Below, in pieces: positions 3,571-28,635 of a stretch of 64,000 bases of DNA (position 1 is the stretch's first letter; the number at the start of each line of letters is the position of its first letter). Where the stretch lies: positions 1 to 64,000 of the IMG/VR virus record IMGVR_UViG_3300033153_004214; one strand, written 5' to 3'. Under the pieces are notes generated by a model that saw only the letters and a program-made list of their open reading frames with translations, did no database searches and had not been told where the DNA came from. The stretch comes from a virus. Made by a program: the position numbers and the translations under genes.

Positions 3571-3573
3571 ACC

Positions 3574-11410: not shown

Positions 11411-11769
11411 TGGCGAATCGTAATAGGGCGGATGCTTACCTGCGTGTGGATCGGGGTGAGCAGGACCGCTACCGGCTCACTCGGGTGCATCTCGACACGA
11501 CGATTAAGCCGGGTACCCAGAGGTACAGTGTGTGGGTCCCTCCTGTTGTGGAGGTTTCGGAGTTTGATGAGCGCCATACTGTTACTTCTAAGGATATTGG
11601 TCATTTGGACCTTATTGCGTACCAGTATTATCAAATTGAAGAGTATTGGTTTGCTATTGCGTATGCCAACCAGATCAGGAACCCGATCACGGATATGTTC
11701 GTAGGCCAGCAGTTGGTCATTCCTTCGTTGCAGGCAGTGACTGATGCGTTAACGGCGGTGAGAACCTAA
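11410..11769 (+). CDS. LysM-like tail protein (P2 gpX-like)
   Basis: Contains HTVTSKDIGHLDLIAYQYYQIEEYWFAIAYANQIRNPITDMFVGQQLVIPS, a LysM-like fold motif. ATG 11410 overlaps the upstream TAA. Confidence 0.6.
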   Translation: MANRNRADAYLRVDRGEQDRYRLTRVHLDTTIKPGTQRYSVWVPPVVEVSEFDERHTVTSKDIGHLDLIAYQYYQIEEYWFAIAYANQIRNPITDMFVGQQLVIPSLQAVTDALTAVRT

Positions 11770-12863
11770 TGCCAGAAGCAGTAGTTTTTGAGTTGAAGGT
11801 CAACGGACAGGATAAGGCCATTGACGGTGGCCGTCTTCGTCGTTTTCAGTACCAGCAGAGCACTGTTGGTTCTGGGTCCTTTACACTTGAGGTTGAGGAC
11901 GCTGATTGGGCTTATTGGGACGCAGTGTACGACCCAGAGACCGAACTTGAGATGCGGTGGGGCTTGAAAGGTTCAGACAGGCCGCAGTGGTCTAAATGGC
12001 ACACGATGCTTGTGCATGATGTGAATAGTCATTTTGTGAAAGGTAATGTAGTGGTCCGTATATCTGGAATGGATAGGTGCTATCTCCTGAATACAAATTG
12101 TTCAAAGAAGATATTCAAGAATAAGCTCGTATCCGAAATTGTGGAGGAATTAGTTGGTTCTTCTGGTTTGGAATTTGATGTGGAGAAGACCAAGGATAAG
12201 TTTTGGCTCACTCAAGGCACTTTGACTGATGCACAGTTCATTCGTTTGGTGTGCGCGGAGTACGCGTACTCTGGTAGTCGGTATGACTACCTTTTCTACA
12301 CGGAGGAGGGCAAGAGAGTCATTTTCCGGCCACCTGATCTTTCGGATATCCAAGGTGAGTATAATTTTCCCGGGATGCTCAATGGAGTATCTGCTAGAGG
12401 TCCTTTGAAATTGCACTATCGACCTCTGATGCTTACAAGTAATCTTGCCTATGGGACTGAGTTCCGCAAGTTTGATAGGATTGAGAAGAAGCCGGAGTTT
12501 TTCTTAGCTACCGAGGATACTGTGGATTACCAACCGTTGGATTCGGGAGGCCCTCCGGTCCCTACAGTTCCAGCGCATATCCAGCCGGTGGTTTGGTCTA
12601 CTGCGGATAAGTCTCTTTGTAAGGCGATATACTCGCAAACGCTCCGAGAGTTATGGGTTTTGGAATTTATTTCAACTTTTGCGCCAAAAATGGTGGTTGG
12701 AAAGATAGTTAAGGTTAATGTGAGTGGTCCCGGACCGGGCGATAAGAATCATGGTATGGCTGGGAAGTATATTCTTGGCGGGGTGACCCATTCTATTGAT
12801 TTCACAGCAGGTAAGGCTCATACACATTTGCTCCTCCAGAGGCGAACAGCAAGGATTGGTTAA
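11769..12863 (+). CDS. Baseplate hub / late control gene D-like tail protein (P2 gpD-like)
   Basis: Its size (364 aa) and position after the gpX-like gene and before the spike gene match the X-D-V order. The start overlaps the upstream stop (taATG). Confidence 0.55.
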   Translation: MPEAVVFELKVNGQDKAIDGGRLRRFQYQQSTVGSGSFTLEVEDADWAYWDAVYDPETELEMRWGLKGSDRPQWSKWHTMLVHDVNSHFVKGNVVVRISGMDRCYLLNTNCSKKIFKNKLVSEIVEELVGSSGLEFDVEKTKDKFWLTQGTLTDAQFIRLVCAEYAYSGSRYDYLFYTEEGKRVIFRPPDLSDIQGEYNFPGMLNGVSARGPLKLHYRPLMLTSNLAYGTEFRKFDRIEKKPEFFLATEDTVDYQPLDSGGPPVPTVPAHIQPVVWSTADKSLCKAIYSQTLRELWVLEFISTFAPKMVVGKIVKVNVSGPGPGDKNHGMAGKYILGGVTHSIDFTAGKAHTHLLLQRRTARIG

Positions 12864-13666
12864 TGTCAGAGCAATCAATGGGAGTCAATTCCTTGTTTCC
12901 GAGCCGCGCTCCTGTACCGATGTTGGATGTGATAGGTCCATATGCAGGGAAGGTTTTGGCGGTGGATGATAGTGAAGATGAGGATGGCCCTCTGGGGCGC
13001 ATCAAGGTGTGGGTGCCCCAGCTTCATGGTGAAGAATATGAGGATAAGGCTGAGGACATCCCTTGGGCACGTCCTCTTGGTTTCGCCAACCCGGGTAAGG
13101 GAGAAGACGGCGTCAAACGAGGAACGTTCTTTGTTCCTCTCAAGCAGATGTGGACCTATGTTTTTTTCGAGGGTGGTTCAATCGATTACCCTGTCTACCT
13201 CGGGGGCTGGTTTGGGAAGCCGGAGGGTACGCCGGAGATTCCTGAGGAATTCTTGGAGAGCGACTATGGTGCTCAGTATCCAGAGATTCCCGGTATGGTC
13301 TTTCCTCCGTTCAGCTTGCAACTGCATGGTCTAGAGACGCCGCAGGCAGCGACTCTGAAGTGGGGTGATGACTTACTCATAGAGATTGACACCACCCCGT
13401 GGAAGAACGATGATCCGACTGTTGCGATTAAGATCGATAATGAGGATTGGAAGTTTTTGCTCAAGTCAAAGGGTGATATCACTATTGAGACGGAGAAGAC
13501 TCTCACCCTGAAAGCGAAGGAACTCATAGCTGAGGTCGAGGAGAAGATCGAAGCTGAGGTGACAGATGGTACCTCAGTCATTAAGACGACAGGCGACAAC
13601 AAGCTCCAGTCTGAGTCGCGCATCGTTGGAGAAGCAGAGCACGCAACTGGTTTTGAGAATCACTAG
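12863..13666 (+). CDS. Baseplate central spike (gpV / gp5 / VgrG-like OB-fold)
   Basis: Contains GKVLAVDDSEDEDGPLGRIKVWVPQLHGEE..IPWARPLGFANPG, which is typical of gpV/gp5 N-terminal domains. The C-terminal part is beta-rich. Confidence 0.65.
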   Translation: MSEQSMGVNSLFPSRAPVPMLDVIGPYAGKVLAVDDSEDEDGPLGRIKVWVPQLHGEEYEDKAEDIPWARPLGFANPGKGEDGVKRGTFFVPLKQMWTYVFFEGGSIDYPVYLGGWFGKPEGTPEIPEEFLESDYGAQYPEIPGMVFPPFSLQLHGLETPQAATLKWGDDLLIEIDTTPWKNDDPTVAIKIDNEDWKFLLKSKGDITIETEKTLTLKAKELIAEVEEKIEAEVTDGTSVIKTTGDNKLQSESRIVGEAEHATGFENH

Positions 13667-14086: not shown

Positions 14087-16114
14087 ATGGGTGAGATTGC
14101 TGAAGCAACAAATGCTCTTCCGGTGATCGACTACGGCCGGAAAGACTTCCAATCGATCAAGGAGGCTTTACTTGATCTCCTCAAGCAGAGGTTCCCGAAC
14201 ACGTGGCGTGACTTCTATGAGTCGCAGATGGGTATGGCGTGGCTCGAACTCATTGCTTACTCCTTCGACAATCTGAGTTTCTATCTCGACTATCAGGCAA
14301 ATGAGTCCTACCTGCCGACAGCCCAAGACCGTGAGAATGTCGTCAAGCTTTTGAAGCTGGTTGGTTACAACCTGCGTGGTGCGACGGCGGCTTCGGTACA
14401 ATGCCTTCTCACGTTGGGCGCTGCCGAGCTTGATGATGTCATCATTCCTGCGGGCACCGCGCTCAACTCCACCAGTGGTCTGGTCTTTGAGTTCCTGACT
14501 GAGGCTCGGATTGCTGCTGGCTCGTTGACTGGGGAAGCTGTTATCACCGAGGGGGAGACCAAGAATGAGGTCTTCGTGTCTGACGGCACGAAGTACCAGA
14601 GATTCACGCTGAGCAACAAGCCTATCATCAATGACTCCGTGGTTGTAACTGTCAATGGTGTCGAGTGGGAGATTGTGGATTCAGTTGTCTACGGCGACTC
14701 AACCTCTCAGGTGTGCGCAGCCTCCTTTGATGTTGACGTGGATGGTGTCGATGTCGCCATCGTGGAGTTTGGTGACGGTGTTTCCGGTGCGATTCCACCG
14801 AATGGTGCGACTATCAACGTCACGGCTCGTGTCGGCGGTGGTGTCGCGGGTAACGTGGCCTTGAACAATATCAACGAGCAGGTGCAAGGCCAGCTTGACG
14901 GTGTCCTTCCTGTCACCCCAGTGCAGGTTGCCGTGACCAATCCAATCTACCGGGGCACCGGGGGCGAAGAGCGTGAGAGCATTGAACACGCGAAGTACTG
15001 GGGGCCTCAGTGGGTGCGGACTAATGGTCGAGCAGTCACTGAGAATGACTTTGATACACTGGCTTCCCTGTTCAGCGATCCTACTTACGGTGCTGTGGCC
15101 TATGCAAAGGCAAAGCTGCGACAGGAGATTCCTGAGCTTAACACAGTCGATCTCTACGTTTGGTCGAGGAATTCTCAGGGGAATCCTGTTCCTGCGTCAG
15201 CGAGTCTGAAGGCGGCTCTTCAGGCTTACTTTGACAACGATGGTGCCGGTTCCGTTCGTATCATCTGTGTGGATACTGAGGTGCAGGACGGCGTCAACTT
15301 CTATCTTGATATCTCTATTCGTGCAATGCCTGAAGCAAGGACAGTTTCCACGGATATGATAGCTAACATTCGGGAGGCTGTGGAGGCTCTCTTCGGTAGT
15401 TCCTTGGTTCTTCCCGGTGAGGACTTCCGCATCTCACACCTTTACCATGCAATACAGGATGCGGCGGGCGTGGACTACGTCATCATCGAGGAGATTGTTG
15501 CGGGTGTCCAGTGCACCCTGTCTCTTGGCGCAGGTGATGATGCTACGAAGGATTACTCGGGTACGTTGACGAAGCTACCAGTCATCCCGTCTACTGTCAC
15601 GATAACGGCTGGTGACCAATCCGTAGCAGATGACGGGTTGGGTACACTTGTAGGTGACGGTTCGGGTACCATCGACTACGACACGGGTGCTCTTTCTGTG
15701 ACATTCGATCAGAATGTCCCGAGTGGGGCTTCAGTCGTTGCGAGCTACCGACAGCTGCAGCAGTTTCAGCGGGGCGAACAAGAAGCTATAGGAGACGGCA
15801 ATACCGCGAGGTACCGCAGGAACGTGAAGTATCCTCCTGTTGTGCCCGGGTCCTTCGCGCTTGCATCAGGAGATATGGTTGTTGTTGATGACGGAGATGG
15901 CAACCTCATTGGGGATGTATACACTGATGGCAAGAACACCATTGATTATGATACAGGGGCCTACGACGTTCAGTTTGCTTCGCCCCCCGGGAACCAAGTT
16001 GCCATCAGTAGCACCTATCGTCAGTATTTGAAGGTGAATGCTGGTGACATCCCAGTTGAGAAGGACCAGTTGGCTGTCTTGGGGAATCTGACAATCCAAT
16101 CCATGGAGAGCTAA
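14087..16114 (+). CDS. Baseplate J-like protein (gpJ / gp6-like)
   Basis: It follows gpW directly. The N-terminal YGRKDFQSIKEALLDLLKQRFPNTWRDFYESQMGMAWLELIAYSFDNLSFYLDYQANE is typical of the Baseplate_J family. Confidence 0.8.
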   Translation: MGEIAEATNALPVIDYGRKDFQSIKEALLDLLKQRFPNTWRDFYESQMGMAWLELIAYSFDNLSFYLDYQANESYLPTAQDRENVVKLLKLVGYNLRGATAASVQCLLTLGAAELDDVIIPAGTALNSTSGLVFEFLTEARIAAGSLTGEAVITEGETKNEVFVSDGTKYQRFTLSNKPIINDSVVVTVNGVEWEIVDSVVYGDSTSQVCAASFDVDVDGVDVAIVEFGDGVSGAIPPNGATINVTARVGGGVAGNVALNNINEQVQGQLDGVLPVTPVQVAVTNPIYRGTGGEERESIEHAKYWGPQWVRTNGRAVTENDFDTLASLFSDPTYGAVAYAKAKLRQEIPELNTVDLYVWSRNSQGNPVPASASLKAALQAYFDNDGAGSVRIICVDTEVQDGVNFYLDISIRAMPEARTVSTDMIANIREAVEALFGSSLVLPGEDFRISHLYHAIQDAAGVDYVIIEEIVAGVQCTLSLGAGDDATKDYSGTLTKLPVIPSTVTITAGDQSVADDGLGTLVGDGSGTIDYDTGALSVTFDQNVPSGASVVASYRQLQQFQRGEQEAIGDGNTARYRRNVKYPPVVPGSFALASGDMVVVDDGDGNLIGDVYTDGKNTIDYDTGAYDVQFASPPGNQVAISSTYRQYLKVNAGDIPVEKDQLAVLGNLTIQSMES

Positions 16115-18274
16115 ATGGCCATTTTCAGAAATACAGGTGTAGACCCTGCAGATATTCCTGATCAAACCTCTGTCCCCGGTGAGCCGGGGGTGGTGGTGCG
16201 CGTTGGCCCCCCGGGTCCTCAAGGTCCTGAAGGTCCCCAAGGTGAACGGGGTCCGATGGGTGCGGATGGGCCACAAGGTATTCAAGGTCTTCAGGGTGCC
16301 ACCGGTGCTACCGGTGCCACTGGGGCCAAAGGTGATCAGGGTGATGCTGGGCCGGGCCAGCCATGGCAGATACTTGATCCAGCAAGTGCTCTCACCGTTG
16401 AAGAGGCACTTGCTGGTGCTGTAGCTGGAGACATCTTCTACCTCCCTGCTGGGACTTATCAGCTTGGGACCTTTGATTTGTCTGTATCGAATATTCGTGT
16501 GGTGGGAACTCCCGGAGCCATCATAGAGATTCCTACTAATGACTATCTAAGTATCACTGGTCATAATGTGCGTTTTGAGAACTTGACATTCAAGTTCACT
16601 GCTGCCGCAACGCCTTCTTACTCAATCACATTGGGTGGCTACGAGAATGTTCTTGATCGGTGTGTCTTTGAGAAAGGTTCGACTACCTACGCCCCAAAGA
16701 CCTTGTTCCGTTTTGCGGATGCTTCGTGGGGCAATTCTGTTACGAATTGCAACATCTATCAAGTGAACAATCCAACGGTTGTCTGTACTCTGTTTGACTT
16801 TGGTGTTTCTGATAATACATCTGGCCACCAGGTGGCCAACAATCATATCGAAGGGGCAGGTCCTAACTACACTGTTACTTTGACAGTATTTAAGATGACA
16901 CAGAGTGCCGGTACCAGTTATGGTACTATCATTGAGGGTAACCATATTGTTGTTCAAGATGACCGGACTATTGGGTTGGTTCCTTTCACTGGTGTTACTT
17001 TCAACGGCAACACATGGGATGCTTCTAATCTCGGTGTACCAACTATCTTCACGAAGTTTATTGATTTTCCGGATACCGCTGTCAGCAATGTTCGCATTGA
17101 AGGAAATTATGCACAGAACTGTCGTTTCTTCATCACTGGTAGCATGAACGCATGGTCTTCTGTAGTTATTATTGGTAATACTATGGAAGGTTACGACCAA
17201 GGCTCACATTTCTTCTCCGTTACTATGACTGCTGGTTCGGAGAATATTTCGATTGTTGGTAACGTAGCCCATGGTCTGTATGGTGACGGCATTTCTCTTA
17301 ATCTTGGCAGTAGTGCTTACATTTTGGAAAGTTTTGTAATCTCGGGCAACTCAATGGATGCTATTGGGTTGGTCACAACTACTGGTATCAAGTTGTACTA
17401 TACTAGTGCAACCTTGAGGAATGTTTCGATAACGGGTAACACACTATACGGCTTCCCTGTGGGTATAGACGTAGATGATCAGTCAGTTACTATTCATAGA
17501 GTTGGTCTTTCTATCGTAGGTAACTCTTGTTACGACTGTGGTACCCACTGCCTTCGTCTAACAAATTGTTCTTGTGCTACGGTTACCGGTAACATATTTG
17601 AGGGAGATGGAAGCACTTACGGTATGTTACTTGATGGTGTGACGCAGTGTACTTTCATTGGTAATACGATAGACCACTGCGGTTCTACAGGTATTGATGT
17701 TGGTGGTGGGGACGCTGAAGAGTGCGTATTCATTGGTAACGTGGGTGGTCCGAATCAAACTTTTCTGGTTGTCAATTGGGCACCTCTTAAGAATAAGAAT
17801 CTTTGGTGGGATAATGGCACTGAGGGACCTGCCCAACACCATAAACTTAGGACGAGTGGCTTAAGCAGTGATACAAACAGTAATGCTTGGAAGGACGATA
17901 CTGTCCTTCGTTTCTGGGCGTGGGCTGGAGAGTACTGGGAGTTTGAATTCAATGTATTTGCTGTTATGGTTGGTGGTGGCGTTTCAGGACAGCAGTTTTC
18001 CATTAACGGCCCTGCTATCACCAATGTGAAATTTCAAACTCGTGTCGAGGATACGGCTCCTAGAAGCTTGGGTGTGTTCACCGCGTTGCGTGGTGCGACC
18101 TCTGCTTTTAGTACAGATACGACAAATCTCCATGTTAGGATAAAGGGTTACATCCAAGTAAGTACATCTGGGTATGTGTCTTTGAGCTTTCGAACACCGT
18201 CCGCTGGGGTTGGTGAGTATGTAACTGTAAATCCGGGTTCTAATGTGGCTGCGAGGCGCGGTTTTACAGGATAG
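16115..18274 (+). CDS. Tail fibre with collagen-like G-X-Y repeats and a right-handed beta-helix domain
   Basis: Contains [51 protein letters not shown], followed by many beta-helix rungs ([63 protein letters not shown]). Confidence 0.75.
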
Positions 18275-18287
18275 AAAGGAAGTATTC

Positions 18288-18692
18288 ATGTCTGAATCAA
18301 AAATCAAGCAACGAATCATTCAGGTCCGAGAGTTTCCTGTCTTCTCCATGGAAAGTCTCAAGTGGATCATGGGTCTATTGACCTTTTTGGGTGTTGCGTT
18401 TGGGGTGCTATGGACATGGCAAGACAGGCAGGATGACGCTACAATGGCTGTGGGTAGGAAAGTCAATCATAACGCCACCATTCTGGAGGAGCACGTCAAG
18501 CAGTCTGAGAAGACTTTCGATGGTATCCACGAGACGCTCAAGGAGCAGAAACAGGTCACTGACAGAACCAAGGAAGCCTTGATAGGGGTTCAGAAGGAAT
18601 TGGAGTTCATACGGCGAAGCAACGGGCACAGCGGAGGACCCTTGGATTTGCCTCTTGTAGTCATACCGCCGGACGAACCGCTGAGTCAATGA
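18288..18692 (+). CDS. Small membrane-anchored coiled-coil protein
   Basis: ATG 18288 follows SD aaaggaag. It has one TM helix (WIMGLLTFLGVAFGVLWTW) and then a helical segment. Confidence 0.45.
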   Translation: MSESKIKQRIIQVREFPVFSMESLKWIMGLLTFLGVAFGVLWTWQDRQDDATMAVGRKVNHNATILEEHVKQSEKTFDGIHETLKEQKQVTDRTKEALIGVQKELEFIRRSNGHSGGPLDLPLVVIPPDEPLSQ

Positions 18693-18754: not shown

Positions 18755-19924
18755 ATGCCGGTGGGCGATTACAATCTCTACCAATACCTACCGTCCTATA
18801 TTCGTTTCAGGGACTCTAGGGAGAATGTAGACGCCGATGGTGGCCGTCCTGTTTTGGAGAAGCTTGTAGAGCTTATCGAGACGGAGACGGGGCTTACGTC
18901 GGATTTGATTACTGGCCTCATCACTAATATCGATGTTGATACGTGTCCACTGAGGTACATCGATTACTTGGCATGGCTCCTTGGAGAGCAAATACCCGGG
19001 GGTTGGAGTGATACAGATCGTAGGGAATTTCTTCGAGTCCTAGCTGATCTCCTCAAGCTGAAGGGTACCCATCAAGGTTTCGAGAAACGAGCAGCTTTTG
19101 CTGGGGAGAAGGCCGCTCGTTTGATCGAGTTGTTCAAGCACGAACTCTACGAACAATACATCTATTCACGAACCTCCAGTAGCTATTTTCCATACAAGTC
19201 TGCAAGAGTGGATGTCGCTCGGGTGGTGTGCGATACCTCTTGCGAATCCTTCTGCGAGTACCAGCAGGAACTAGATTATTTGACGCCGAAAGAGGGGCAG
19301 GCTCTGATCGATGAGATTGGAGAGACGTTACCCATCCATGTTCTTGTTCGCAAGTTAGCCATCCCGGTCGATATCTCTGATCAGTTCTCTACGCCTGCTG
19401 ATTCAATAGCTGGTTGCCTCATGTCGTGCCAAGTCTATTGTGAGGCAGGTTGCGAGGAAGAGGCACAGGTCTATGGTGGTTCAGAATGTCAGGCACGTAT
19501 TGGGAACAGTTTCCCTACAACGTTCGATACATTCCTCGTGACTACTGTTTGCGTGAGCTATTGTGAATCCGCGTGTCAGACTTGCTGTGAATGTGGTGAA
19601 GAGGGCACGTGTGAAACTGTTTGTGAGACGACTTGTCAGGCTACTTGCGAGGACCTTTGTCAGGAAGCCTGTATGGTGCAGGGTTGTCAGACGGATTGCC
19701 AATCAGGCTCCTGTCAAGAGGGGTGTCAGACCTCCTGTCAAGATGCTTGTGAGTCTGGGTGCGAGCCTATGCTTGAGGAAGGTTGTACTCAGTGTGAGAC
19801 TGCCTGTCAAGCGGCATGTGAGGCAGTGTGCCAAGTTACTTGTGAAACGGTTTGTCAGGATGCTTGTGAGCTTGAATGCCAGACAGGTTGTACGACTGCA
19901 TGCGAATTGGCGGTACAGACATGA
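18755..19924 (+). CDS. P2 gpI-like baseplate/tail protein with a cysteine-ladder C-terminus (paralogue 1)
   Basis: The N-terminal YQYLPSYIRFRD..LEKLVELIE..IDVDTCPLRYIDYLAWLLGE..W..RREFL..LLKLKGTHQGFE matches the Tail_P2_I family pattern. The last 128 aa contain 30 Cys (hand count), mostly as C-[EQ]-x-x tetrads. Confidence 0.7.
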   Translation: MPVGDYNLYQYLPSYIRFRDSRENVDADGGRPVLEKLVELIETETGLTSDLITGLITNIDVDTCPLRYIDYLAWLLGEQIPGGWSDTDRREFLRVLADLLKLKGTHQGFEKRAAFAGEKAARLIELFKHELYEQYIYSRTSSSYFPYKSARVDVARVVCDTSCESFCEYQQELDYLTPKEGQALIDEIGETLPIHVLVRKLAIPVDISDQFSTPADSIAGCLMSCQVYCEAGCEEEAQVYGGSECQARIGNSFPTTFDTFLVTTVCVSYCESACQTCCECGEEGTCETVCETTCQATCEDLCQEACMVQGCQTDCQSGSCQEGCQTSCQDACESGCEPMLEEGCTQCETACQAACEAVCQVTCETVCQDACELECQTGCTTACELAVQT

Positions 19925-21144
19925 CCGATCTATATAGATATTTGCCAAACTTTCTTCGGGCGAGGGATGCCTTCTATTCCGAAGGTCTTGATGAACCCGG
20001 TGACGACCCCATCTTGAAGCGGCTGGTCGAACTTATTGCGGACCAGTTTGATGAAACACATGAACTCATTCAGGAAATGTTCAAGATCACTGATACTGAT
20101 GAGGTGCCACCTGAGTATTTCAAGCATCTCTCTTACCTTATCGGTACTATGGTCGGTAGCGATGTCAATGAGGACTTTGCTCGTTACCTGATGCGGAATC
20201 TTGTCTACTTCTATAAGATCAAGGGTACTCACGAAAGTTGGCGGGTTAGTTGGACCCTACAGGGCGAGGCACCTCCCATTGTCCATGAGCTTTGGAAGCA
20301 AATACCGCAGGAGATCAAGAACTACAGTCTCGAAGAATCGCAGCAATTCCCTCTGAAATCGGCTCGTGTAGATTTTGGTGTATGCTCAAGTTCCTGCGAG
20401 TCTTTCTGTGAGACAACCTGTGAGTATTCGTGTGAGGTGGGTGATGAGACAGGGGACCTTGTTACCCGGACAGAAGGCAAGCGTCTTATCGGTCTTGTGG
20501 ATGATCAACGACCTATTCATGTGATCCTCCGTAAGGAAGTTTTGGATGTGCCGTTGCAGGACGGCATGGAGTTTCCAGAGGACATGATAGGCAACTTCCC
20601 TGTATCCTATGATGTAGATGTTTGGAAGGGCAGCGAGATTATTGGAGAACCTGAGGACGAATGGTTCTCCGGGCTGGATAGACTTGATGTTAAGGTGACT
20701 TGTGTCAGCGCCTGTGAGAGTGCTTGTCAGGGCTGCTGTGAGATTGATTGTGAGTGCGGTCCCTGCGAGCACACTTGCCAAGTAGGTAGCTGCGAGTTGA
20801 GTTGTACGGAGTCTTGCGAGGCCAATTGTGAATGGTCTTGTGAGAATACATGTCAGTTTGGTTGTACTAGTGCTGGTGCGGAAGGCCCGGGTGCCTGTCT
20901 TACTGATTGCCAGACTGAGTGCCAAGTTGATTGCCAGACTGAGTGCCAAGCTGATTGCCAGACTGAGTGCCAAGTTGATTGCCAGACTGAGTGCCAAGCT
21001 GATTGCCAGACTGAGTGCCAAGCTGAGTGTCAAGCTGAGTGTCAAGCTATCTGCCAGACTGAGTGTCAAACATTAACTTGTCAATTACAGGGTTGTGAAA
21101 TGGGGGGTTGTCAAACCTATTGTATGCATATTTTGCAAGAGTAA
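19921..21144 (+). CDS. P2 gpI-like baseplate/tail protein with a cysteine-ladder C-terminus (paralogue 2)
   Basis: ATG 19921 overlaps the upstream TGA (ATGA). The N-terminal LYRYLPNFLRARD..LKRLVELIAD..FKHLSYLIG..FYKIKGTHESW parallels paralogue 1. The last 151 aa contain 35 Cys (hand count), including 14 uninterrupted tetrads (CLTD CQTE CQVD CQTE CQAD ...). Confidence 0.7.
   Translation: MTDLYRYLPNFLRARDAFYSEGLDEPGDDPILKRLVELIADQFDETHELIQEMFKITDTDEVPPEYFKHLSYLIGTMVGSDVNEDFARYLMRNLVYFYKIKGTHESWRVSWTLQGEAPPIVHELWKQIPQEIKNYSLEESQQFPLKSARVDFGVCSSSCESFCETTCEYSCEVGDETGDLVTRTEGKRLIGLVDDQRPIHVILRKEVLDVPLQDGMEFPEDMIGNFPVSYDVDVWKGSEIIGEPEDEWFSGLDRLDVKVTCVSACESACQGCCEIDCECGPCEHTCQVGSCELSCTESCEANCEWSCENTCQFGCTSAGAEGPGACLTDCQTECQVDCQTECQADCQTECQVDCQTECQADCQTECQAECQAECQAICQTECQTLTCQLQGCEMGGCQTYCMHILQE
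20905..21072 (+). repeat. Coding tandem repeat: 5 x 24 nt (gattgccagactgagtgccaag[t/c]t) followed by four 12-nt degenerate units
   Basis: Units were read at 20905, 20929, 20953, 20977 and 21001; they are identical except for one t/c position. They are followed by gagtgtcaagct x2, atctgccagact and gagtgtcaaaca. Confidence 0.95.
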
Positions 21145-21161
21145 TACCAAAGGGGGGCGGG

Positions 21162-23537
21162 ATGGATCAGTACTTTCAGCTTACCAAGGGTTGTGGTGGT
21201 TATCCGGCTAAAGCTCCAGCAGAGCCAGAGTTTGTCAAGTATGACTTTAGGGGTAGGCATTATGTATGGGACCCCAACTCTATGGTGCTTGCTACGTATG
21301 AGGGTGAAATCCCTGAGATGCATCCTGTGGAGTGGAAGCCAACGTTTCGTCTTGCTAACGCCCCTGCTTGCCCGCACCTCGTTCTTGAGTTGACAGATGC
21401 GTGCAATCTTGCGTGTTCCTACTGTGTACCACCTGATTCACTAATAACTATGTCAGACGGTACGACTCGGCAGATAGGTAGCATACTTGTTGGTGACAAG
21501 GTGCTTGGTTTCAATGAAAGAAGTGCAAAAGGCAAGCATACTCGTTATGAAGAAGCTATTGTGCAGCGAGTTCTTAGGCGGCGCAGTAATTTGGTAAAGA
21601 TTACACTGGATAACGGTAGTACCTTAGTGAGTACACCAGAGCATCCTTGGTTCACAGGTCGATCTTTTGTTCCTCCACGTGTGGGTACCACTGTGTGGCA
21701 AGGGTTGCCAGCGCCAGAAGGTCCGTTATTCACCGAGGATTATTGGTTAGGTTGGTTGCAAGGTTTGGCTGCCGGGGGCGGTACATTTGTTGTTAAGGAA
21801 TACGGTTCTTACAAACGAAAGAATACCGTCCGTAAGCGTAGGTTGCATACTTGGTTTAGGCTTGCGTTGAAAGACGAAGAATTGATTGATCAGTTTTCGC
21901 GGGTAGCTGACCGGTTTGGTTGGACTCTGCATACATGTACACACGAAGGGTTACCGGCACTTCGTGTAGGAAAGGCTTCTGTTGTATTTGGGTTGATGGA
22001 ATCACCTGCTGAAGAATCTGATGAGTATGTTAAAGGATGGTTGGCAGGATTCTTTGATGCAGAAGGTTGCATTTCTGGTGGTTTGTGGTCTATAAGCCAA
22101 AACAAGGGTGAGCACTTGATTCGGTGCGTGGAGTATCTGCATCGGTTGGGTTTCAAAGTTCATGTTGACGATTATCGTAAGTGTCAGCGTGTTCGATTGC
22201 TTGGTAAATCTCAGTCTGCACGGTTTATTGCTATGATGCATCCGCAGTGTTTCAGAAAACGAAATTACTTACTTAATAAGACTGTGTATGGTACTAAGGC
22301 TAAGATAATCGCGGTCGAGGATATAGGTGAAGGTGACGTTGTTAACTTAACGACTTCTTCGAGGACCTATGTATCACAGGGTGCTTTGTGCCATAACTGC
22401 TTTGTTTCTGAGGATAATGCGAGGAGTAGGGCAAAGAAGACCATGACCTTTGAGACTGCTGTTGATGCGATCTCGAAGTTCTCCCTGCGGGTTGCTGCGA
22501 AGCCGACGCCATCACAGCCTGTTTCAATAGGATTCTTTGGTGGTGAACCGTTGGTGGCGGGTGCTCTTTTGCGTAAGATTGTGAAGTATGCGGAGGGGGT
22601 TTTTGGGGCGGGGTCTTGCCGGTTTCACTTGACGACCAACGCTACCCTTATCAACGAGGAATGGGCACAGTATATCAACAAGCACAACTTTTCTCTGATC
22701 GTCAGTATTGATGGACCTCAGCATGCTCATGATGCCACACGTAAGACTCATAGTGGTGACGGTTCTTACAGCAGGGTTATCAAAGCGTTGGAGTTGCTCC
22801 GAACCTATGCACCCCGGGCTATCAAAGCTACCACGTTGCGAGCTACCTTCACTCCGAATAGTAATTGTAGTTTGGTGGATCGGCTCAAGCACTTGAACCA
22901 CCTCTGCGATAGGGGCTTTGGTACTCATGTCTCCGTAGAACCGGCTTTTCTTGGGGAGCGTGTATGTTTTGACAAGTCTAAAGCAGGAGACCTCACGCCT
23001 GACCCTACTGTGCAAGAGCAGTGGTTGCAGGAAGCGCATGAAGCGGCAGACTGGTATATTGAAAGGATTCGAGAAGGCCAGAACCCTCCTCGCTATCATC
23101 ATTTTAGTATACATATTAAACGATTGTTGCAGGGGTATCCGCAGCCTACTGAATGCGGTGCAGGTAAAGGTTATTTTTCAGTTGGGGCAGATGGAACTAT
23201 TTATGCTTGTCATCGTGAAACAGCAACTATGATAGGTCATCTTGATTATGGCATTGATCACGAGTTGGCTGCACCTTGGCAGGATAATAGATATTACGCT
23301 CGTAAGGGTTGTACGGATTGTTGGATGCGGAATGTTTGTGGCGGTGGCTGTCGTGAGGTTGCCATGGTACAGAATGGTGATCTATCAGTTCCAGTTTCTT
23401 CGGAGTGTGCTTTTAAGGAACTCTGGTTCAAGGAGGCAGCACACATCATTGCTGAACTCAAGACGACGGAGTGGGTTCATCGAATGCCTTTCCTCAAGCA
23501 GGTTGTTGGTCTGGTCTCTCGGCGGCGAGTACGTTAG
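21162..23537 (+). CDS. Radical SAM / SPASM-domain enzyme (peptide/protein-modifying maturase type), interrupted by an intein
   Basis: ATG 21162 follows SD aagggggg. The extein reads ..LELTDACNLACSY|C FVSEDN.. (CX3CX2C is restored after splicing). The SPASM motif is C-x13-G-x4-C (ECGAGKGYFSVGADGTIYAC) plus C-x2-C-x5-C-x3-C (CTDCWMRNVCGGGC) plus a distal C (SSECAF). Confidence 0.8.
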   Translation: MDQYFQLTKGCGGYPAKAPAEPEFVKYDFRGRHYVWDPNSMVLATYEGEIPEMHPVEWKPTFRLANAPACPHLVLELTDACNLACSYCVPPDSLITMSDGTTRQIGSILVGDKVLGFNERSAKGKHTRYEEAIVQRVLRRRSNLVKITLDNGSTLVSTPEHPWFTGRSFVPPRVGTTVWQGLPAPEGPLFTEDYWLGWLQGLAAGGGTFVVKEYGSYKRKNTVRKRRLHTWFRLALKDEELIDQFSRVADRFGWTLHTCTHEGLPALRVGKASVVFGLMESPAEESDEYVKGWLAGFFDAEGCISGGLWSISQNKGEHLIRCVEYLHRLGFKVHVDDYRKCQRVRLLGKSQSARFIAMMHPQCFRKRNYLLNKTVYGTKAKIIAVEDIGEGDVVNLTTSSRTYVSQGALCHNCFVSEDNARSRAKKTMTFETAVDAISKFSLRVAAKPTPSQPVSIGFFGGEPLVAGALLRKIVKYAEGVFGAGSCRFHLTTNATLINEEWAQYINKHNFSLIVSIDGPQHAHDATRKTHSGDGSYSRVIKALELLRTYAPRAIKATTLRATFTPNSNCSLVDRLKHLNHLCDRGFGTHVSVEPAFLGERVCFDKSKAGDLTPDPTVQEQWLQEAHEAADWYIERIREGQNPPRYHHFSIHIKRLLQGYPQPTECGAGKGYFSVGADGTIYACHRETATMIGHLDYGIDHELAAPWQDNRYYARKGCTDCWMRNVCGGGCREVAMVQNGDLSVPVSSECAFKELWFKEAAHIIAELKTTEWVHRMPFLKQVVGLVSRRRVR
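21423..22397 (+). mobile_element. Intein (325 aa, with LAGLIDADG endonuclease) inserted in the CX3CX2C motif of the radical SAM gene
   Basis: Block A is CVPPDSLITMSDGT, block B is LVSTPEHPW, the LAGLIDADG motifs are WLGWLQGLAAGGGTF and WLAGFFDAEGCI, and the C-terminus is GALCHN followed by +1 Cys. Confidence 0.85.
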
Positions 23538-23547
23538 GAGTCAGTAA

Positions 23548-24597
23548 GTGCGTCATGCGGTCATCTGTCTTCGTGGACTACTAGGCGACTTCATCAGACT
23601 AGGTGGAGTGCTACGTCCCTTCATCGAGAGAGGTGACGAGGTTCATGTGTTCACAAGGAAGGATTTCACACCTGTTACGATTCTGCAGCACATCAAGGGT
23701 CTTTCAAGCTATCACCTGCTCACAGACATCCCTATTGACATTAATAGCATAGGTCAGTGCGACTTCCCTGTTAATCTACAAAGGGTTCCGTGGCTTTACA
23801 TGTTGGGTTTACTACGGATTGAGCACGCGGTGAATGTTTCTCATTTGATTGGTAACGATGGTGTTAATCATGAGTCGGTGGTCGTTAGTCCGCAGGAGTA
23901 TTTAGCCTCTTCATTGGGCGTACAGTATAATGACATCAACGTGGTTGATTGGGTAGTGTTTCCTGCTGAAGAATTGATGGCTAAGGTATGGTTGCGTCAG
24001 AATGCTCAAGGTGACGGTCCTTTGGTTGTGCTTCAAGTCCATTCTACTTCTGTCCAACGTCGGTTGCCGGTAGATACTGCCACTGCTCTTTACGATGCGT
24101 TGGTGAAGAGGGGTTACCGAGTTGTGGTTGCGTATCTTCCAAAGGACACTGCTGATTACACAGGATTTGTTATTCGACGTGCTAAGACGTTAGGGGGATT
24201 GCCATGGGGAGTGTCGTGCGCAGTGCTCAAGCAGGCGAGCTTGTGTATCTCAGTTGATACCGCAATTCTTCATATGGCAGCAGCCTTTGGTCTTCCTACT
24301 GTTGGTCTTTTTGGGCCGACTAATGGTGATGTCATTATGCGTCATTATCCAACAGCAGTTAATGCTGAACTTCCTGTGTCGATTCCGTGTAGGAATTGCT
24401 ACTATCGTTCGAGTTTTGGTGCTTCTGAGGAGTGCGCCAAGGCTGGATGTACCGTAATGGGTGCTCATACAGTAGAGTCGATCTTGACAGCAGTGGATTC
24501 GTGTTTGGGTGCGCGTTCGGATGTATCTTCTGATGTTGCTGTTTCAGTGGGTAGTTTGAGTGCAGCCAGCAGACAGAAGGTGCTGGGCAATGGTTAA
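23548..24597 (+). CDS. GT9 family (heptosyltransferase-like) glycosyltransferase with a C-terminal Cys4 motif
   Basis: Contains AVICLRGLLGDFIRL, LVVLQVHSTSVQRRLP and SVDTAILHMAAAFGLPTVGLFGPTNG. The Cys motif CRNCYYRSSFGASEECAKAGC (C-x2-C-x11-C-x4-C) lies at 24388-24450. Confidence 0.75.
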   Translation: MRHAVICLRGLLGDFIRLGGVLRPFIERGDEVHVFTRKDFTPVTILQHIKGLSSYHLLTDIPIDINSIGQCDFPVNLQRVPWLYMLGLLRIEHAVNVSHLIGNDGVNHESVVVSPQEYLASSLGVQYNDINVVDWVVFPAEELMAKVWLRQNAQGDGPLVVLQVHSTSVQRRLPVDTATALYDALVKRGYRVVVAYLPKDTADYTGFVIRRAKTLGGLPWGVSCAVLKQASLCISVDTAILHMAAAFGLPTVGLFGPTNGDVIMRHYPTAVNAELPVSIPCRNCYYRSSFGASEECAKAGCTVMGAHTVESILTAVDSCLGARSDVSSDVAVSVGSLSAASRQKVLGNG

Positions 24598-25588
24598 GAA
24601 AGCAGTAGTTCTTCGAGAGGCCGGGGGTCTTGGAGACGTTCTCCAATTGGGGTCCACTTGCGATCTGCTGAAGAATAGTGATTATCATGTATCCTTGTAC
24701 ATAATGAATGATCCTGAACTCATTGCTCTAGCTGCTGGTTTCAAGAATGTTGATGCGCTGCATCCTGTTCATGTCGTGAACCATATGAGAAGACCACGTA
24801 CTGTGAAGAGATACCGTTCATATGAATACTTGAATGACTTTGTAGAAGAAGCTGCGCATGCGGATGTTGTAGTAGATGCGTGGTGCCCTGCAGTACGGCA
24901 TGAAATACAGCATGCTCGTAAAGGTGTCTGTCCAACCCTCTCTAGGGCGCAGCTTTTCGCTGCTGAAGCTGGGTTTGATCCTTCCATGGTCCGACCTGCT
25001 GAGATAGACAAGACTCGCATGATGGCGGGTAACGGAGGTTTTGCTGACACTATACGTGGTATGTATGGTGATGAATGGATTCTGGTTCATTTGAAAGCAA
25101 GGGAACCAGCCCGCGCAGTTCCTGATGAACAAGCAAACGCCTTAATCTACCTGCTTGCTCAGAAGTGGACCGTAGTTGTCTTCGCGTACCCTGAACATCA
25201 ATGGGGTCAGATGCTTCAGCATGATAACGTCCATTGGTTTACTGCCTCGCAAAGTCAGCTAAATCACATCCGCTCTGTTTATGCTGCTTTTGCTCTATGC
25301 GAGCAGGCTATGGCAGCAGTGGTCGTTGACAGTTTTCTGCTCCATGTCTCTCAGTCTGTTGGAACACCGGCAGTGCTGTTGACTGGCCCTACTGATCCGG
25401 TACCCTTGACGGCCCATTACTCAGATGTTCACTGGGTCGAAAGGAGTATGGACAAGGCTCCCTGTGGTTCATGCTACTATCAGGCAAACATGGGTTTTTC
25501 CACAGCTTGTCGAGATAGAGGTTGTTTTCATCTATCAAGATTCAGCATGTCCAAGCTTATAGCCAAGGTTGAGGAGGTCGTAGGATGA
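24590..25588 (+). CDS. GT9 family (heptosyltransferase-like) glycosyltransferase with a C-terminal Cys4 motif (second copy)
   Basis: ATG 24590 overlaps the upstream stop. Contains VVLREAGGLGDVLQ, ILVHLKAREPARAVP and VVDSFLLHVSQSVGTPAVLLTGPTDP. The Cys motif CGSCYYQANMGFSTACRDRGC, with identical spacing, lies at 25463-25525. Confidence 0.7.
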   Translation: MVKKAVVLREAGGLGDVLQLGSTCDLLKNSDYHVSLYIMNDPELIALAAGFKNVDALHPVHVVNHMRRPRTVKRYRSYEYLNDFVEEAAHADVVVDAWCPAVRHEIQHARKGVCPTLSRAQLFAAEAGFDPSMVRPAEIDKTRMMAGNGGFADTIRGMYGDEWILVHLKAREPARAVPDEQANALIYLLAQKWTVVVFAYPEHQWGQMLQHDNVHWFTASQSQLNHIRSVYAAFALCEQAMAAVVVDSFLLHVSQSVGTPAVLLTGPTDPVPLTAHYSDVHWVERSMDKAPCGSCYYQANMGFSTACRDRGCFHLSRFSMSKLIAKVEEVVG

Positions 25589-26874
25589 AAGCGCAGCTTG
25601 CCATCCTCACCTGTAACCGGCCAAGTGTTCTTGAACTGTGTTTGCTGAAGCTGGGCCTTACAGATAAGCATAGGGAAGTCTTGGATGTCGTTATCTACGG
25701 AAACGATGCAGCCCTTTCTGGGGAGGCAGTAGCGAACGCATTCAATGTGCGGTTTGTTGATTTTCATGATGAGTACCCTTGGTCTGAAGACCGAATGGTC
25801 TCAGCCCAGATGAGCCTTGGTCGTGCCCGGCAGGATATCGTTCGGAATTTCTGTATTGATGAGAGATTTGGTCCGAATGATTTTCTGGTTATGCTGGATG
25901 ATGACATCATGGTTACTGCTGATACGATCTTGGAGGCCATAGAAGACTTTAAGCTGTTCTCTAAGTCCACGAAGGTTGCTTGTGTGGCGCTACACCCCTT
26001 CAAGAAACGTCTCAGTCGTTCTAGCATCCAGTTAGGGAAGAAGCTCTTCAATTTCTTCGACTATACAGGTGAGTGTGCCATGATTTGGCAGCGGCGTATG
26101 TTTTCCATAGTCGGCAATCACTTTGGGCTTATCGAAGGAGGCCATGGGGACAAGCAATTCGCAAACGCCCGTGAGCACGGTGCCCTACTCACAAGGTTCC
26201 ACCCACCCTACGAAATGCAGCATGTCGGCTTCACGCCCCTCTGCTCATCTCAGGTCTTTGGGCATCTGGAGCGAAGGCCCGGTTGGACTCGACAACCCTT
26301 GAAAGACTACACCGGGACACGTATATTCTTTGAGGATGAACTGACTATTTGGCGATCTCAGGGATTGGAAGCCCTGAAGACTATACTGAAGGAGGGAACG
26401 ATGATAGGGACAGAGAAGGCCGCGCCGATTGAGGATCGTTTCCCCAAGGCGCGGGGAGAAGTGAACATCCAGAAGGTTCGCAAGTCTGACGGCGAGGTTG
26501 TCGAGGATATCACCACTGACAACCTTGTCGTTGACAAGGCGAAGGAGATCATGGCTCACCTGCTCGCTGGAGACGATTCCGACAACTACAAGGTGAGCAA
26601 GATGACCTTTGGGACCAACGATGATCCGCCCACGCCTGAGGACCTCGTGGTCAAGACTCCGATCACCCCCGTGAAGCCTATTGCTTCTGTGGAGTACCCG
26701 AACGACTCTTCGGTGCGATTCATCGTGACGCTGGATCAGGACGAAGCCAATGGATTCCCGATTGCGGAGGCGGGTCTTCAGGCGCAGAACGGTCTCGTCG
26801 CTCGTGTTTCCTTTGGTCCGCTCACGAAGGATAGCGACTTCATCTTCATCTTCCGCTGGACGATATACTGGTAG
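25585..26874 (+). CDS. GT-A fold (GT2-like) glycosyltransferase fused to a C-terminal beta-rich domain of unknown function
   Basis: The N-terminus has AILTCNRPSVLELCL and the DxD motif FLVMLDDDIMV. The C-terminal ~150 aa (..FPIAEAGLQAQNGLVARVSFGPLTKDSDFIFIFRWTIYW) match no enzyme motif I recognise. Confidence 0.55.
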   Translation: MKAQLAILTCNRPSVLELCLLKLGLTDKHREVLDVVIYGNDAALSGEAVANAFNVRFVDFHDEYPWSEDRMVSAQMSLGRARQDIVRNFCIDERFGPNDFLVMLDDDIMVTADTILEAIEDFKLFSKSTKVACVALHPFKKRLSRSSIQLGKKLFNFFDYTGECAMIWQRRMFSIVGNHFGLIEGGHGDKQFANAREHGALLTRFHPPYEMQHVGFTPLCSSQVFGHLERRPGWTRQPLKDYTGTRIFFEDELTIWRSQGLEALKTILKEGTMIGTEKAAPIEDRFPKARGEVNIQKVRKSDGEVVEDITTDNLVVDKAKEIMAHLLAGDDSDNYKVSKMTFGTNDDPPTPEDLVVKTPITPVKPIASVEYPNDSSVRFIVTLDQDEANGFPIAEAGLQAQNGLVARVSFGPLTKDSDFIFIFRWTIYW

Positions 26875-28415: not shown

Positions 28416-28635
28416 GCTGTCCATACCGGGGCAGTACGAGACGATCAACCCGAGCGTGAGTATCACTGCAGATGTTGGGGAGAATGAAGACCTCAGCACC
28501 GTGGTGGATGAACTCAAGATTCAGGTTGAAGCGGAGTTCTGGAGGCTGGCCTACACTGACTATGCCACCGCACTTCAGCGAGCCGCAGCAGGCACTCAGA
28601 ACTGGCTGGCTGCGAAGTTTCCTCGGCAACCGTAA
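28378..28635 (+). CDS. Small hypothetical protein (85 aa)
   Basis: ATG 28378 follows SD gggggacggga. Its stop overlaps the start of the DnaB-like gene. Confidence 0.4.
   Translation: MKIRTVTVGASHKLSIPGQYETINPSVSITADVGENEDLSTVVDELKIQVEAEFWRLAYTDYATALQRAAAGTQNWLAAKFPRQP

Follow-up and report, generated by a model that had tools for sequence, protein, structure and literature searches.

The stretch of DNA considered here (a window of 64,000 nucleotides, corresponding to positions 1 to 64,000 of IMG/VR virus record IMGVR_UViG_3300033153_004214) contains two neighbouring genes, p1 and p2, that encode gpI-like baseplate proteins ending in long 'ladders' of cysteines at a period of four residues, followed directly by a gene for a radical S-adenosylmethionine (SAM)/SPASM peptide maturase. 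By analogy with characterized members of that enzyme family, the ladders are probably substrates of the adjacent maturase, which would turn them into thioether-laced rods on the phage baseplate. The components of this reading differ in strength: the maturase very likely acts on the ladder; thioether formation as the chemistry involved is, again by analogy, slightly favoured; and a role for the modified ladder as a stabilized structural rod is put forward as a tentative proposal. The assignment of the ladder as a substrate is supported by the conservation of a dipeptide of cysteine and glutamate or glutamine (Cys-Glx), and by the adjacency and co-occurrence of the maturase across unrelated tail proteins.

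Cysteine ladders in two baseplate paralogues

The p1 gene (18755..19924, plus strand) encodes a protein of 389 residues and 39 cysteines (with homologues P0001-P0017), in which a gpI/Tri2-like wedge domain at the N-terminus is followed by two 'mini-ladders' and a C-terminal CXXX ladder. The first mini-ladder (19229..19258, plus strand; residues 159-168, CDTSCESFCE) falls in conserved alignment columns, and the second (19415..19459, plus strand; residues 221-235, CLMSCQVYCEAGCEE) emerged from a survey of cysteine motifs in open reading frames (ORFs) together with the alignment of homologues; the main ladder domain (19538..19921, plus strand; residues 262-389) contains 30 cysteines in 128 residues, arranged in 22 tetrads. 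The p2 gene (19921..21144, plus strand) encodes 407 residues from a probable ATG at 19921, the longest ORF (19876-21144) comprising 422 residues and 41 cysteines; it harbors a single mini-ladder (20383..20436, plus strand; CSSSCESFCETTCEYSCE), found in the same motif survey, and a main ladder domain (20686..21141, plus strand) with 35 cysteines in 152 residues. At 36% identity (E=2e-67), p1 and p2 are paralogues of each other, and within the window the ladder motif is confined to their two ORFs. Because the ATG at 19921 overlaps the p1 stop codon as ATGA (19921-19924), and because orthologues of p2 in two related loci (L001 and L002) begin at the equivalent methionine (MTDLYRYLP), position 19921 is most likely the start of p2; the overlap further implies translational coupling of the two genes. 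The starts of the longest ORFs (19876 for p2, and a TTG at 21108 for the maturase) are probably not the real ones.

The periodicity of the ladders was evident both in whole proteins and in comparison with shuffled sequences. Successive cysteines are separated by four residues in 26 of 38 gaps in p1 and 29 of 40 in p2, and Glu or Gln directly follows 30 of 39 and 32 of 41 cysteines, respectively. Within the ladder domains, where cysteine accounts for 23.4% (p1, 128 residues) and 23.0% (p2, 152 residues) of all positions, composition-preserving shuffles (20,000 trials) gave means of 3.1 and 3.6 gaps of four, and maxima of 11 and 13, against the 21 and 25 observed; similarly, 24 and 28 Cys-[E/Q] dipeptides are present, against shuffle means of 8.0 and 9.4. 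An earlier, sequence-only reading of this region had described a cysteine content near 23%, a strict period of four and a Glu or Gln after nearly every cysteine, all of which these counts and shuffles uphold. Two further features that it listed, the small CxxxC clusters and a linker (LPIHVLVRK in p1, RPIHVILRK in p2), are both kept across homologues, and its run of 14 unbroken tetrads in p2 is real (cysteines 341-397); the acidic residue that it placed before many cysteines is frequent in p2 (16 of 41) but not in p1 (3 of 39).

At the DNA level, part of the p2 ladder corresponds to a tandem repeat of 24 bp (20903..21069, plus strand; seven copies, 89% matches) that encodes (CQTECQ[AV]D)n, the ladder having expanded here recently by slippage. 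Since this repeat accounts for part of the perfect run in p2, the tetrads of that run are not independent of one another. All 22 of the p1 tetrads are distinct at the DNA level, and the periodicity is therefore upheld at the level of the protein. Ladder length, for its part, seemingly evolves via replication slippage.

The claim that both proteins begin with a gpI-like domain, also made in the sequence-only reading, is backed by several individually weak but convergent comparisons. The p1 protein barely passes the Pfam threshold for Tail_P2_I (PF09684; 21.1 bits, cutoff 20.6), while p2 has no Pfam match; both match TIGR02242 below its cutoff of 51.85 bits (p1, E=2.5e-8, 34 bits; p2, E=1.8e-3, 18 bits); a profile built from 15 homologues has pyocin R2 Tri2 (PA0619) as its best PDB match (E=0.0019); and the top Foldseek matches of the AlphaFold2 (AF2) model are all contractile-baseplate wedge components, restricted to the N-terminal domain and non-significant (E>=0.06). 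The genes are positioned in a baseplate module after homologues of gpV, gpW and gpJ (with GPW_gp25 present in L001 and L002, which are syntenic), and it is reasonable to name p1 and p2 gpI-like baseplate paralogues. The probable homology with P2 gpI, Mu gp48 and Tri2 comprises an N-terminal domain of approximately 130 residues. The solved relatives PA0619 (177 residues) and A-1(L) gp32 (191 residues) are too short to hold such a C-terminal ladder, and the presence of two paralogues, each with a ladder of 130-150 residues, distinguishes p1 and p2 from P2 gpI and Tri2; proteins of this type are not known to carry cysteine ladders. In PHROGs, p1, p2 and most ladder proteins have no family. Searches of GenBank phages returned neither near-identical nor distant DNA or protein matches for the region or for p2, with the BLAST low-complexity filter probably masking the ladders, and an IMG/VR search for relatives seeded with p1 and p2 gave zero confirmed relatives.

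The adjacent maturase and its association with ladders

The maturase gene (21162..23537, plus strand) encodes 466 residues after removal of an intein; its longest ORF (21108-23537) begins at the TTG at 21108, and the ATG at 21162 lies 17 nt past the p2 stop codon, preceded by a G-rich ribosome-binding site. All three genes (p1, p2 and maturase) are co-directional; the third had escaped the sequence-only reading. The product matches the Pfam Radical_SAM family (52.9 bits, cutoff 29.5), and a regular expression for the seven-cysteine SPASM motif of two auxiliary clusters (CX9-20GX4C ... CX2CX5CX3C ... C) matches the spliced ORF at residues 358-442, a stretch that contains CTDCWMRNVCGGGC. The radical SAM signature CX3CX2C, which holds the [4Fe-4S] cluster that cleaves SAM, is interrupted, between its tyrosine and its third cysteine, by a class-1 intein of 325 residues with a LAGLIDADG homing endonuclease (21423..22397, plus strand), which starts with CVPPD, contains TPEH, ends in CHN|C and carries the LAGLIDADG motifs LGWLQGLAAGGG and KGWLAGFFDAEG (Pfam LAGLIDADG_3, 7.4e-7; Hint and Intein_splicing, weak). 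Removal of the intein in silico restores the signature as CNLACSY|C, and the maturase orthologues of L001 and L002 are intein-free, at 465-466 residues. Because the intein splits CX3CX2C, the enzyme would be active only after splicing.

The best NCBIfam matches of the maturase are to QhpD (2.7e-58), PapB (3.2e-57) and the SCIFF maturase (1.5e-49), with further matches to a nif11-peptide maturase and CcpM, and the closest solved structure is that of the thioether-forming CteB (5WGG; E=1.8e-34), across both the radical SAM and SPASM domains. The same affinities are displayed by maturases linked to ladders elsewhere: for 12 of 14 tested, the top NCBIfam match was PapB, QhpD or the SCIFF maturase, the remaining two corresponding to a true TIGR04115 member in L096 (485.8 bits, cutoff 350) and to one L055 ORF without a match at a cut of 1e-18, and PapB was the best match for 8 of 10 viral ladder-linked maturases.

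Ladder and maturase recur together in tail modules of very different construction, where the ladder proteins are of the myovirus baseplate, siphovirus distal-tail and fibre-like types or are simply small. In L001 and L002 (approximately 45% identity), the order of ladder protein, ladder paralogue, maturase and GT9 glycosyltransferase is held, and in the more distant L003, ladder proteins of 681 and 694 residues are followed by a radical SAM gene, a GT9 gene and a GT2-like gene. The siphovirus-like loci L004 and L005 display a tape measure gene, a ladder protein of 512 residues and a radical SAM enzyme, an arrangement seen again directly after the tape measure gene of L084, while in L006 a radical SAM/SPASM gene of 343 codons overlaps the start of the gene for a ladder protein of 590 residues that contains a transmembrane segment as well as an Ig-like domain. 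A radical SAM gene is likewise adjacent, or a few kb away, for tail ladder proteins of approximately 1000 residues (L100, L114), for proteins with N-terminal ladders (L019, L059, L090, L132) and for small ladder proteins (L015, L096, L138). The maturases of L004, L006, L015 and L084 have no N-terminal extension. Among p1 homologues, the ladder is conserved down to approximately 28% identity, with invariant cysteine columns.

This association was quantified with two kinds of search. A generic scan of IMG/VR with the degenerate DNA pattern (TGYSARN6)x5 + TGYSAR, corresponding to six C-[E/Q]-x-x units, retrieved at least 120 stretches, most of which came from perfect 12-bp repeats read off-frame; these served as a negative control. 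With a hidden Markov model built from six ladder-linked maturases, a radical SAM/SPASM ORF was detected in 11 of 16 loci with diverse ladders (usually directly adjacent), versus 1 of the 104 others, which were off-frame tandem-repeat or no-ORF matches to the same pattern (Fisher p=4e-11); the sole positive among the 104, L055, is itself a genuine, all-Gln ladder. Two aperiodic E/Q patterns, unmatchable by tandem repeats, then replaced the generic pattern. Among viral sequences these yielded 13 new loci, all 13 of which encode in-frame ladder proteins and nine of which contain a radical SAM gene with CX3CX2C. Among 185,579 species genomes, the aperiodic search yielded three genuine ladder loci out of five: one in an Oscillospiraceae metagenome-assembled genome (MAG), with the maturase adjacent; one in a prophage tail and lysis module of Ezakiella peruensis M6.X2 that also encodes a tail-collar fibre, an amidase and a maturase; and one in a Ca. 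Acidiferrales MAG, where the protein has 192 cysteines. Overall, a maturase is present in 29 of 38 genuine ladder loci, usually adjacent; L053, an apparent negative that became positive through L140 on the same contig, is counted among the 29. Among the 38, none was seen with ample flanks on both sides and no maturase, and the ladder and the maturase are the only elements common to these otherwise unrelated tail modules.

Several of these loci merit individual description. The Ca. Acidiferrales protein (L133, JBEKAE010000027.1, 498-4088) is 1196 residues long, and its C-terminal 800 or so residues are almost pure C-[E/Q]-x-x; a viral relative (L136, 2-2626) has 189 cysteines and an adjacent radical SAM gene. 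The Ezakiella prophage (L135, NZ_LT962469.1) is the same element as IMG/VR 2791354893_000001 (L138); its ladder protein is small and its amidase an endolysin. E. peruensis M6.X2 is a cultured human-gut anaerobe, and its prophage is a possible experimental system. Three radical SAM-like ORFs each were seen in L147 (1000-3485, in tandem) and in L055 (3-9403, around two HNH endonuclease genes beside the all-Gln ladder).

A common grammar runs through these repeats, with a consensus (from approximately 800-1000 tetrads) of C-[E 45% / Q 40%]-[T, S, V, A]-[G, S, A, T]. Across 805 tetrads, drawn from 42 proteins, Glu or Gln follows the cysteine in 88%, and Thr or Ser occupies the +2 position in about 42-45% of tetrads. 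Where the spacing has slipped to five, Glu or Gln is found at +1 of the preceding cysteine in 84% of cases and at -3 of the following cysteine in 5%; where one cysteine is missing (a spacing of eight), the orphaned tetrad retains its Glu or Gln in 93%; and the final cysteine of a run is followed by Glu or Gln in 69 of 83 cases. The behaviour at slips, missing cysteines and run ends therefore identifies the Cys-Glx dipeptide as the conserved unit, with approximately one Glx per cysteine, a ratio near 1:1 that resembles the six CXXXD motifs of PapA. Gln is as common as Glu overall, and the L055 ladder is all-Gln; the interchangeability of the two residues thus indicates that the length of the side chain (Glx, not Asp or Asn) matters and that a carboxylate is not needed. 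A requirement for one acidic residue per tetrad was rejected, given that Asp and Glu are rare at +2 and +3 and that all-Gln ladders occur, and a ring of the NxxC type, from Glx at position i to cysteine at i+3, was disfavoured, given that Glu or Gln keeps to the preceding cysteine and that the PapB acceptor lies C-terminal to its donor.

Structure prediction with AF2, a check that the sequence-only reading had proposed, renders the ladders helical: in p1, the helices span residues 259-279, 286-317, 320-341 and 345-388 (with a predicted local distance difference test score, pLDDT, of about 51-78 across the block), and in p2, residues 265-279, 281-317 and 323-385 (about 55-71 over residues 291-380). 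The prediction that the ladders are alpha-helices is held with modest confidence, the evidence being weak; a helix combined with a period of four would align the cysteines on one helical face.

Candidate chemistry and competing explanations

Repeats of this general kind have been catalogued as CXXX-repeat radical SAM targets (Pfam PF27846, 'tSAM_targ_Cxxx_rpt'; TIGR04117, 'Cys-Xaa-Xaa-Xaa repeat radical SAM target protein'; maturase TIGR04115), which likewise place cysteines at a period of four next to a radical SAM/SPASM maturase. Precomputed PF27846 matches exist for P0001 and P0002 (98% and 84% identical to p1), with weak or faint matches to distant members, and TIGR04117 scores 9.7 bits on the p1 ladder and 20.7 on that of P0013, against a cutoff of 50. 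There are differences: the TIGR04117 model describes a small protein of 98 positions, whereas the repeat is here a domain of tail and baseplate proteins of 35-150 kDa; the Glu or Gln after each cysteine is strongly conserved in the phage ladders; and the window maturase is not a member of TIGR04115 (76 bits versus 350), whereas that of L096 is. The CXXX-repeat family is catalogued in silico only, and a literature search found no paper on these targets, nor any in which radical SAM enzymes modify the structural proteins of phages. The repeat thus appears in databases and yet, as far as could be found, has apparently never been described in virion proteins. The sequence-only reading had envisaged a new fibre architecture, against which a match to a characterized, solved family of cysteine-rich repeats would count. 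No solved structure resembles the ladder (a PDB sequence search gave zero matches to it); the repeat class itself is already catalogued as a predicted radical SAM target, for which no structure or experimental characterization was found, and the objection therefore applies only by half.

Three characterized systems supply the precedents for a proposed chemistry. The core of the SCIFF peptide, CQTSCQSACKTSC, which is modified by CteB or Tte1186 (TIGR03974; 5WGG), is itself a ladder of 4-5 units with the same C-[Q/K]-[T/S]-[S/A] tetrads. Its thioether was mapped from Cys32 to Thr37 (i+5, the residue right after the next cysteine) or, in a later study, to the gamma-carbon of Thr34 (i+2) (PMC8326336). 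SCIFF is a cellular peptide of approximately 45 residues, with a leader bound by an RRE domain and a proposed role in quorum sensing, and is not a virion component. The freyrasin system (PapA/PapB, NF047865) again involves tandem motifs, six of the form CXXXD, with one acceptor per cysteine: PapB forms six thioethers, tolerates acceptors C-terminal to the cysteine from i+1 to i+7, and binds the cysteine at auxiliary cluster 1 (PMC12373016). In PapA, a short secreted peptide unlike p1 and p2, the acceptor is Asp at i+4, whereas the residue conserved in the phage ladder is a Glx, at i+1 or, equivalently, at i+5. The best functional analogy is provided by QhpD (TIGR03906), which staples a protein subunit and not an antibiotic peptide: it installs three thioethers between cysteine and Asp or Glu inside the QhpC subunit, in the cytoplasm, where they replace disulfides (PMC7876137). 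The QhpC cross-links are three and irregular, its leader is cleaved by QhpE, and it belongs to the operon qhpABCDEFG; the phage ladder, by comparison, is periodic. Together these precedents support linkage of cysteine either to Glx (i+1 or i+5) or to Thr (i+2), and argue against the NxxC-like Glx-x-x-Cys ring. Two GenBank gut contigs labelled 'Bacteriophage sp.' (L127, MT836452.1, 565-729; L128, MT835472.1, 5411-5623) carry canonical SCIFF peptides, with the core given above, next to maturases, and may be bacterial fragments or phage-borne SCIFF systems.

On these analogies, a mechanism for the window can be proposed. Splicing of the intein would restore CX3CX2C and render the maturase active; a ladder cysteine thiolate would then bind at an auxiliary [4Fe-4S] cluster, the 5'-deoxyadenosyl radical would take a side-chain hydrogen from a nearby acceptor, and a thioether would form between sulfur and carbon. 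The likeliest acceptor would be the Glu or Gln after cysteine, either at its own +1 position or at that of the next tetrad (i+5, as in SCIFF Cys32-Thr37), with the Thr or Ser at +2 being less likely. Repeated some 30 times per protein, this process would convert a probably helical, thiol-rich segment into a covalently laced rod, resistant to redox change and proteases, at the periphery of the baseplate, where fibre docking or host contact can be offered as guesses at its job. The broader proposal, that tailed phages of many lineages employ radical SAM/SPASM enzymes of their own to install long runs of Cys-to-Glx thioethers (from tens of cysteines to approximately 190) in tail and baseplate proteins and so form a covalently laced helical rod, falls slightly short of an even prospect.

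A number of points weigh against the proposal of a thioether-laced rod. Every mechanistic step is drawn by analogy, and the placement of p1 and p2 in the virion is deduced from homology and gene order. The maturase scores below all of the curated equivalog cutoffs (score and cutoff in bits: QhpD, 198 and 453; PapB, 194 and 340; SCIFF, 169 and 425; TIGR04115, 76.1 and 350), so that its chemistry could differ. SCIFF maturases have so far been found to form one cross-link, despite the six cysteines available (PMC8326336), and PapB so far takes acidic acceptors only (PMC12373016), while the ladders have Gln as often as Glu. Nine of the 38 ladder loci end 0-2.4 kb downstream of the ladder gene and are not evaluable for a maturase; two of them encode the same protein as a maturase-positive locus. 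Glycosyltransferases co-occur with the maturase in the window lineage and in a weak candidate fusion in L004, and the pathway may therefore exceed cross-linking. Finally, the AF2 models, computed without modification, have a mean pLDDT of only 56 (p1) and 50 (p2).

Some of these points bear directly on an alternative in which the ladder is modified by the adjacent radical SAM enzyme, but not through a Cys-to-Glx thioether; oxidation of cysteine to formylglycine (as by anSME), another change to cysteine or a side chain, a thioether to the Thr or Ser at +2, or a two-step route that ends in glycosylation of Cys, Ser or Thr by the linked glycosyltransferases would each be conceivable. In addition to the maturase lying under all equivalog cutoffs, anSME belongs to the same clade (9.4e-35 in NCBIfam, 1.6e-16 in the PDB), although that similarity covers only the N-terminal half of the maturase and the anSME motif C/S-x-P/A-x-R is absent. 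The frequency of Thr or Ser at +2, and the mapping of the SCIFF link to Thr at i+2 by Hudson et al. (PMC8326336), lend some credit to an acceptor at that position, which is nevertheless far less conserved than Glu or Gln at +1. Glycosylation would accord with the GT9 and GT2 genes found after the maturase, both in the window and in L001-L003, with the weak GT2-like C-terminus of the L004 maturase and with an 820-residue methyltransferase-GT9-GT2-TPR protein of the window; a Pfam scan found no glycosyltransferase flanking the ladder-maturase pair in L015, L055, L059, L069 or L096. On balance, this alternative is rather unlikely.

Less probable again, and to be considered a minor contender, is the possibility that an unmodified ladder chelates iron, zinc or an Fe-S cluster, or forms disulfides along the fibre axis, while the maturase acts elsewhere. 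Some phage fibres (T4 gp37 and gp12, and the apex of P2 gpV) bind iron via HxH repeats. A segment with 23% cysteine at regular spacing could similarly bind soft metals, or form disulfides outside the cell, and residual free cysteines could still bind metal. The ladders, however, are almost devoid of histidine (none in p1, two isolated residues in p2, and no HxH repeats); they have in common with such fibres no more than the broad notion of ligands on a periodic repeat, being predicted as helices instead of trimeric beta-structure and having a dedicated modifying enzyme. The Cys-Glx dipeptide is no known metal-site signature, its near-invariant Glu or Gln is left unexplained by metal binding, and no metalloprotein family or solved structure was matched. 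The presence of the maturase in 29 of 38 ladder loci (the rest being cut short) versus 1 of 104 controls is also hard to explain with another substrate, as the ladder and the maturase are all that the loci have in common. The metal chelation advanced in the sequence-only reading, by comparison with HxH fibres, is therefore not upheld; its notion of a cross-linked rod was probably right in spirit, given the maturase next door, but not in its metal-based rationale. Exceedingly improbable, finally, is the explanation that the ladder is no true protein feature but a DNA tandem repeat read off-frame or as low complexity, or else the tail of a degenerating gene. Most matches to the generic IMG/VR pattern were indeed off-frame artefacts of 12-bp repeats, and part of the p2 ladder is a 24-bp repeat, but the p1 tetrads differ from one another in DNA, the ladder is conserved as protein to approximately 28% identity with invariant cysteine columns, it shares an ORF with a recognizable baseplate domain, and the aperiodic patterns found in-frame ladders in 13 of 13 new viral loci and 3 of 5 genome loci.

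Genomic setting and significance

Downstream of the maturase lie two GT9-like glycosyltransferase genes. The first (23548..24597, plus strand; heptosyltransferase-like by family matches) is syntenic with the maturase in L001-L003 and is a possible accessory modifier, and the second (24560..25588, plus strand) was likewise assigned from family matches. They are followed by a gene for a 429-residue protein (25585..26874, plus strand) with no Pfam match, which occupies the position of a 431-residue protein in L002 and of a 471-residue, GT2-like protein in L003 (Glycos_transf_2, E=1e-5). The ladder-linked maturase of L004 (5581-7398; 605 residues) has a weak, sub-cutoff GT2-like domain at its C-terminus (E approximately 2e-4), a possible radical SAM-glycosyltransferase fusion. 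Elsewhere in the window, just upstream of the tail sheath gene, the 820-residue protein (1108-3570) combines SAM methyltransferase, GT9, GT2 and TPR domains; its presence, and that of the two GT9 genes, suggests some glycosylation by the phage, possibly of virion proteins. A glycosyltransferase as an obligatory third partner of ladder and maturase was rejected, since none was found by Pfam among the flanking genes scanned in the five loci named above.

The baseplate module upstream of p1 includes a Phage_base_V (gpV) homologue (12863-13666, by Pfam), a baseplate J or T4 gp6-like wedge protein (14087..16114, plus strand; Pfam Baseplate_J, with tblastn matches to proteins annotated as baseplate wedge or baseplate J), a fibre or spike protein with collagen repeats and a right-handed beta-helix identified by domain search (16115..18274, plus strand) and, between that gene and p1, an ORF of 149 residues (18243-18692) with a hydrophobic segment, a coiled-coil-like tail and no family match. 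A T4-like portal, a sheath, PolA and a RecA/UvsX-like protein mark the window as that of a myovirus, whose conserved genes are approximately 25-30% identical, at most, to those of any isolated phage. GC skew is positive throughout 1-64000 and nearly all long ORFs are on the plus strand, so that the whole window appears to be transcribed in one direction. The family A DNA polymerase (41768-44527) carries a fused N-terminal domain of the uracil-DNA-glycosylase superfamily.

Inteins and homing endonucleases are unusually abundant in this genome, with additional ORFs of this kind at 28635-31382, 50625-52808, 54785-57769 and 6250-7218. Among the carriers are a DnaB-like helicase (intein and LAGLIDADG) and a 727-residue protein (Intein_splicing), and proteins of 994 and 322 residues match LAGLIDADG_3. 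Related insertions are found in L002, where an HNH/NUMOD4 homing endonuclease gene (11149-11679) has been inserted between the two ladder paralogues, and where a gene for 1075 residues at the position of baseplate J (1146-4373) has an Intein_splicing match.

Sactipeptides and ranthipeptides, which are small and secreted, contain thioethers formed by radical SAM enzymes, and so does one enzyme subunit, QhpC; no others are known. If the reading of the ladders as substrates of the neighbouring maturase is correct, RiPP-type chemistry (that of peptides made on ribosomes and modified after translation) would extend to the assembly of viruses, as the first such radical cross-linking in a virus particle, and the ladders would represent a fibre architecture of a new, covalent kind. 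For the CXXX-repeat radical SAM system, now an orphan, a function and a product class would be assigned for the first time, and a new route would be available to redox-independent, highly cross-linked protein rods, with interest for phage structural biology, for the engineering of host range and stability, and for the biocatalytic stapling of peptides or proteins; an enzyme that handles some 30 sites in a large protein, and that apparently accepts both Glu and Gln, would make a useful tool. The proposal is testable, in that the genes for substrate and enzyme are adjacent and a related prophage resides in the cultured Ezakiella peruensis M6.X2. If it holds, many phages would chemically staple some parts of their tails, much as bacteria do with peptide natural products.

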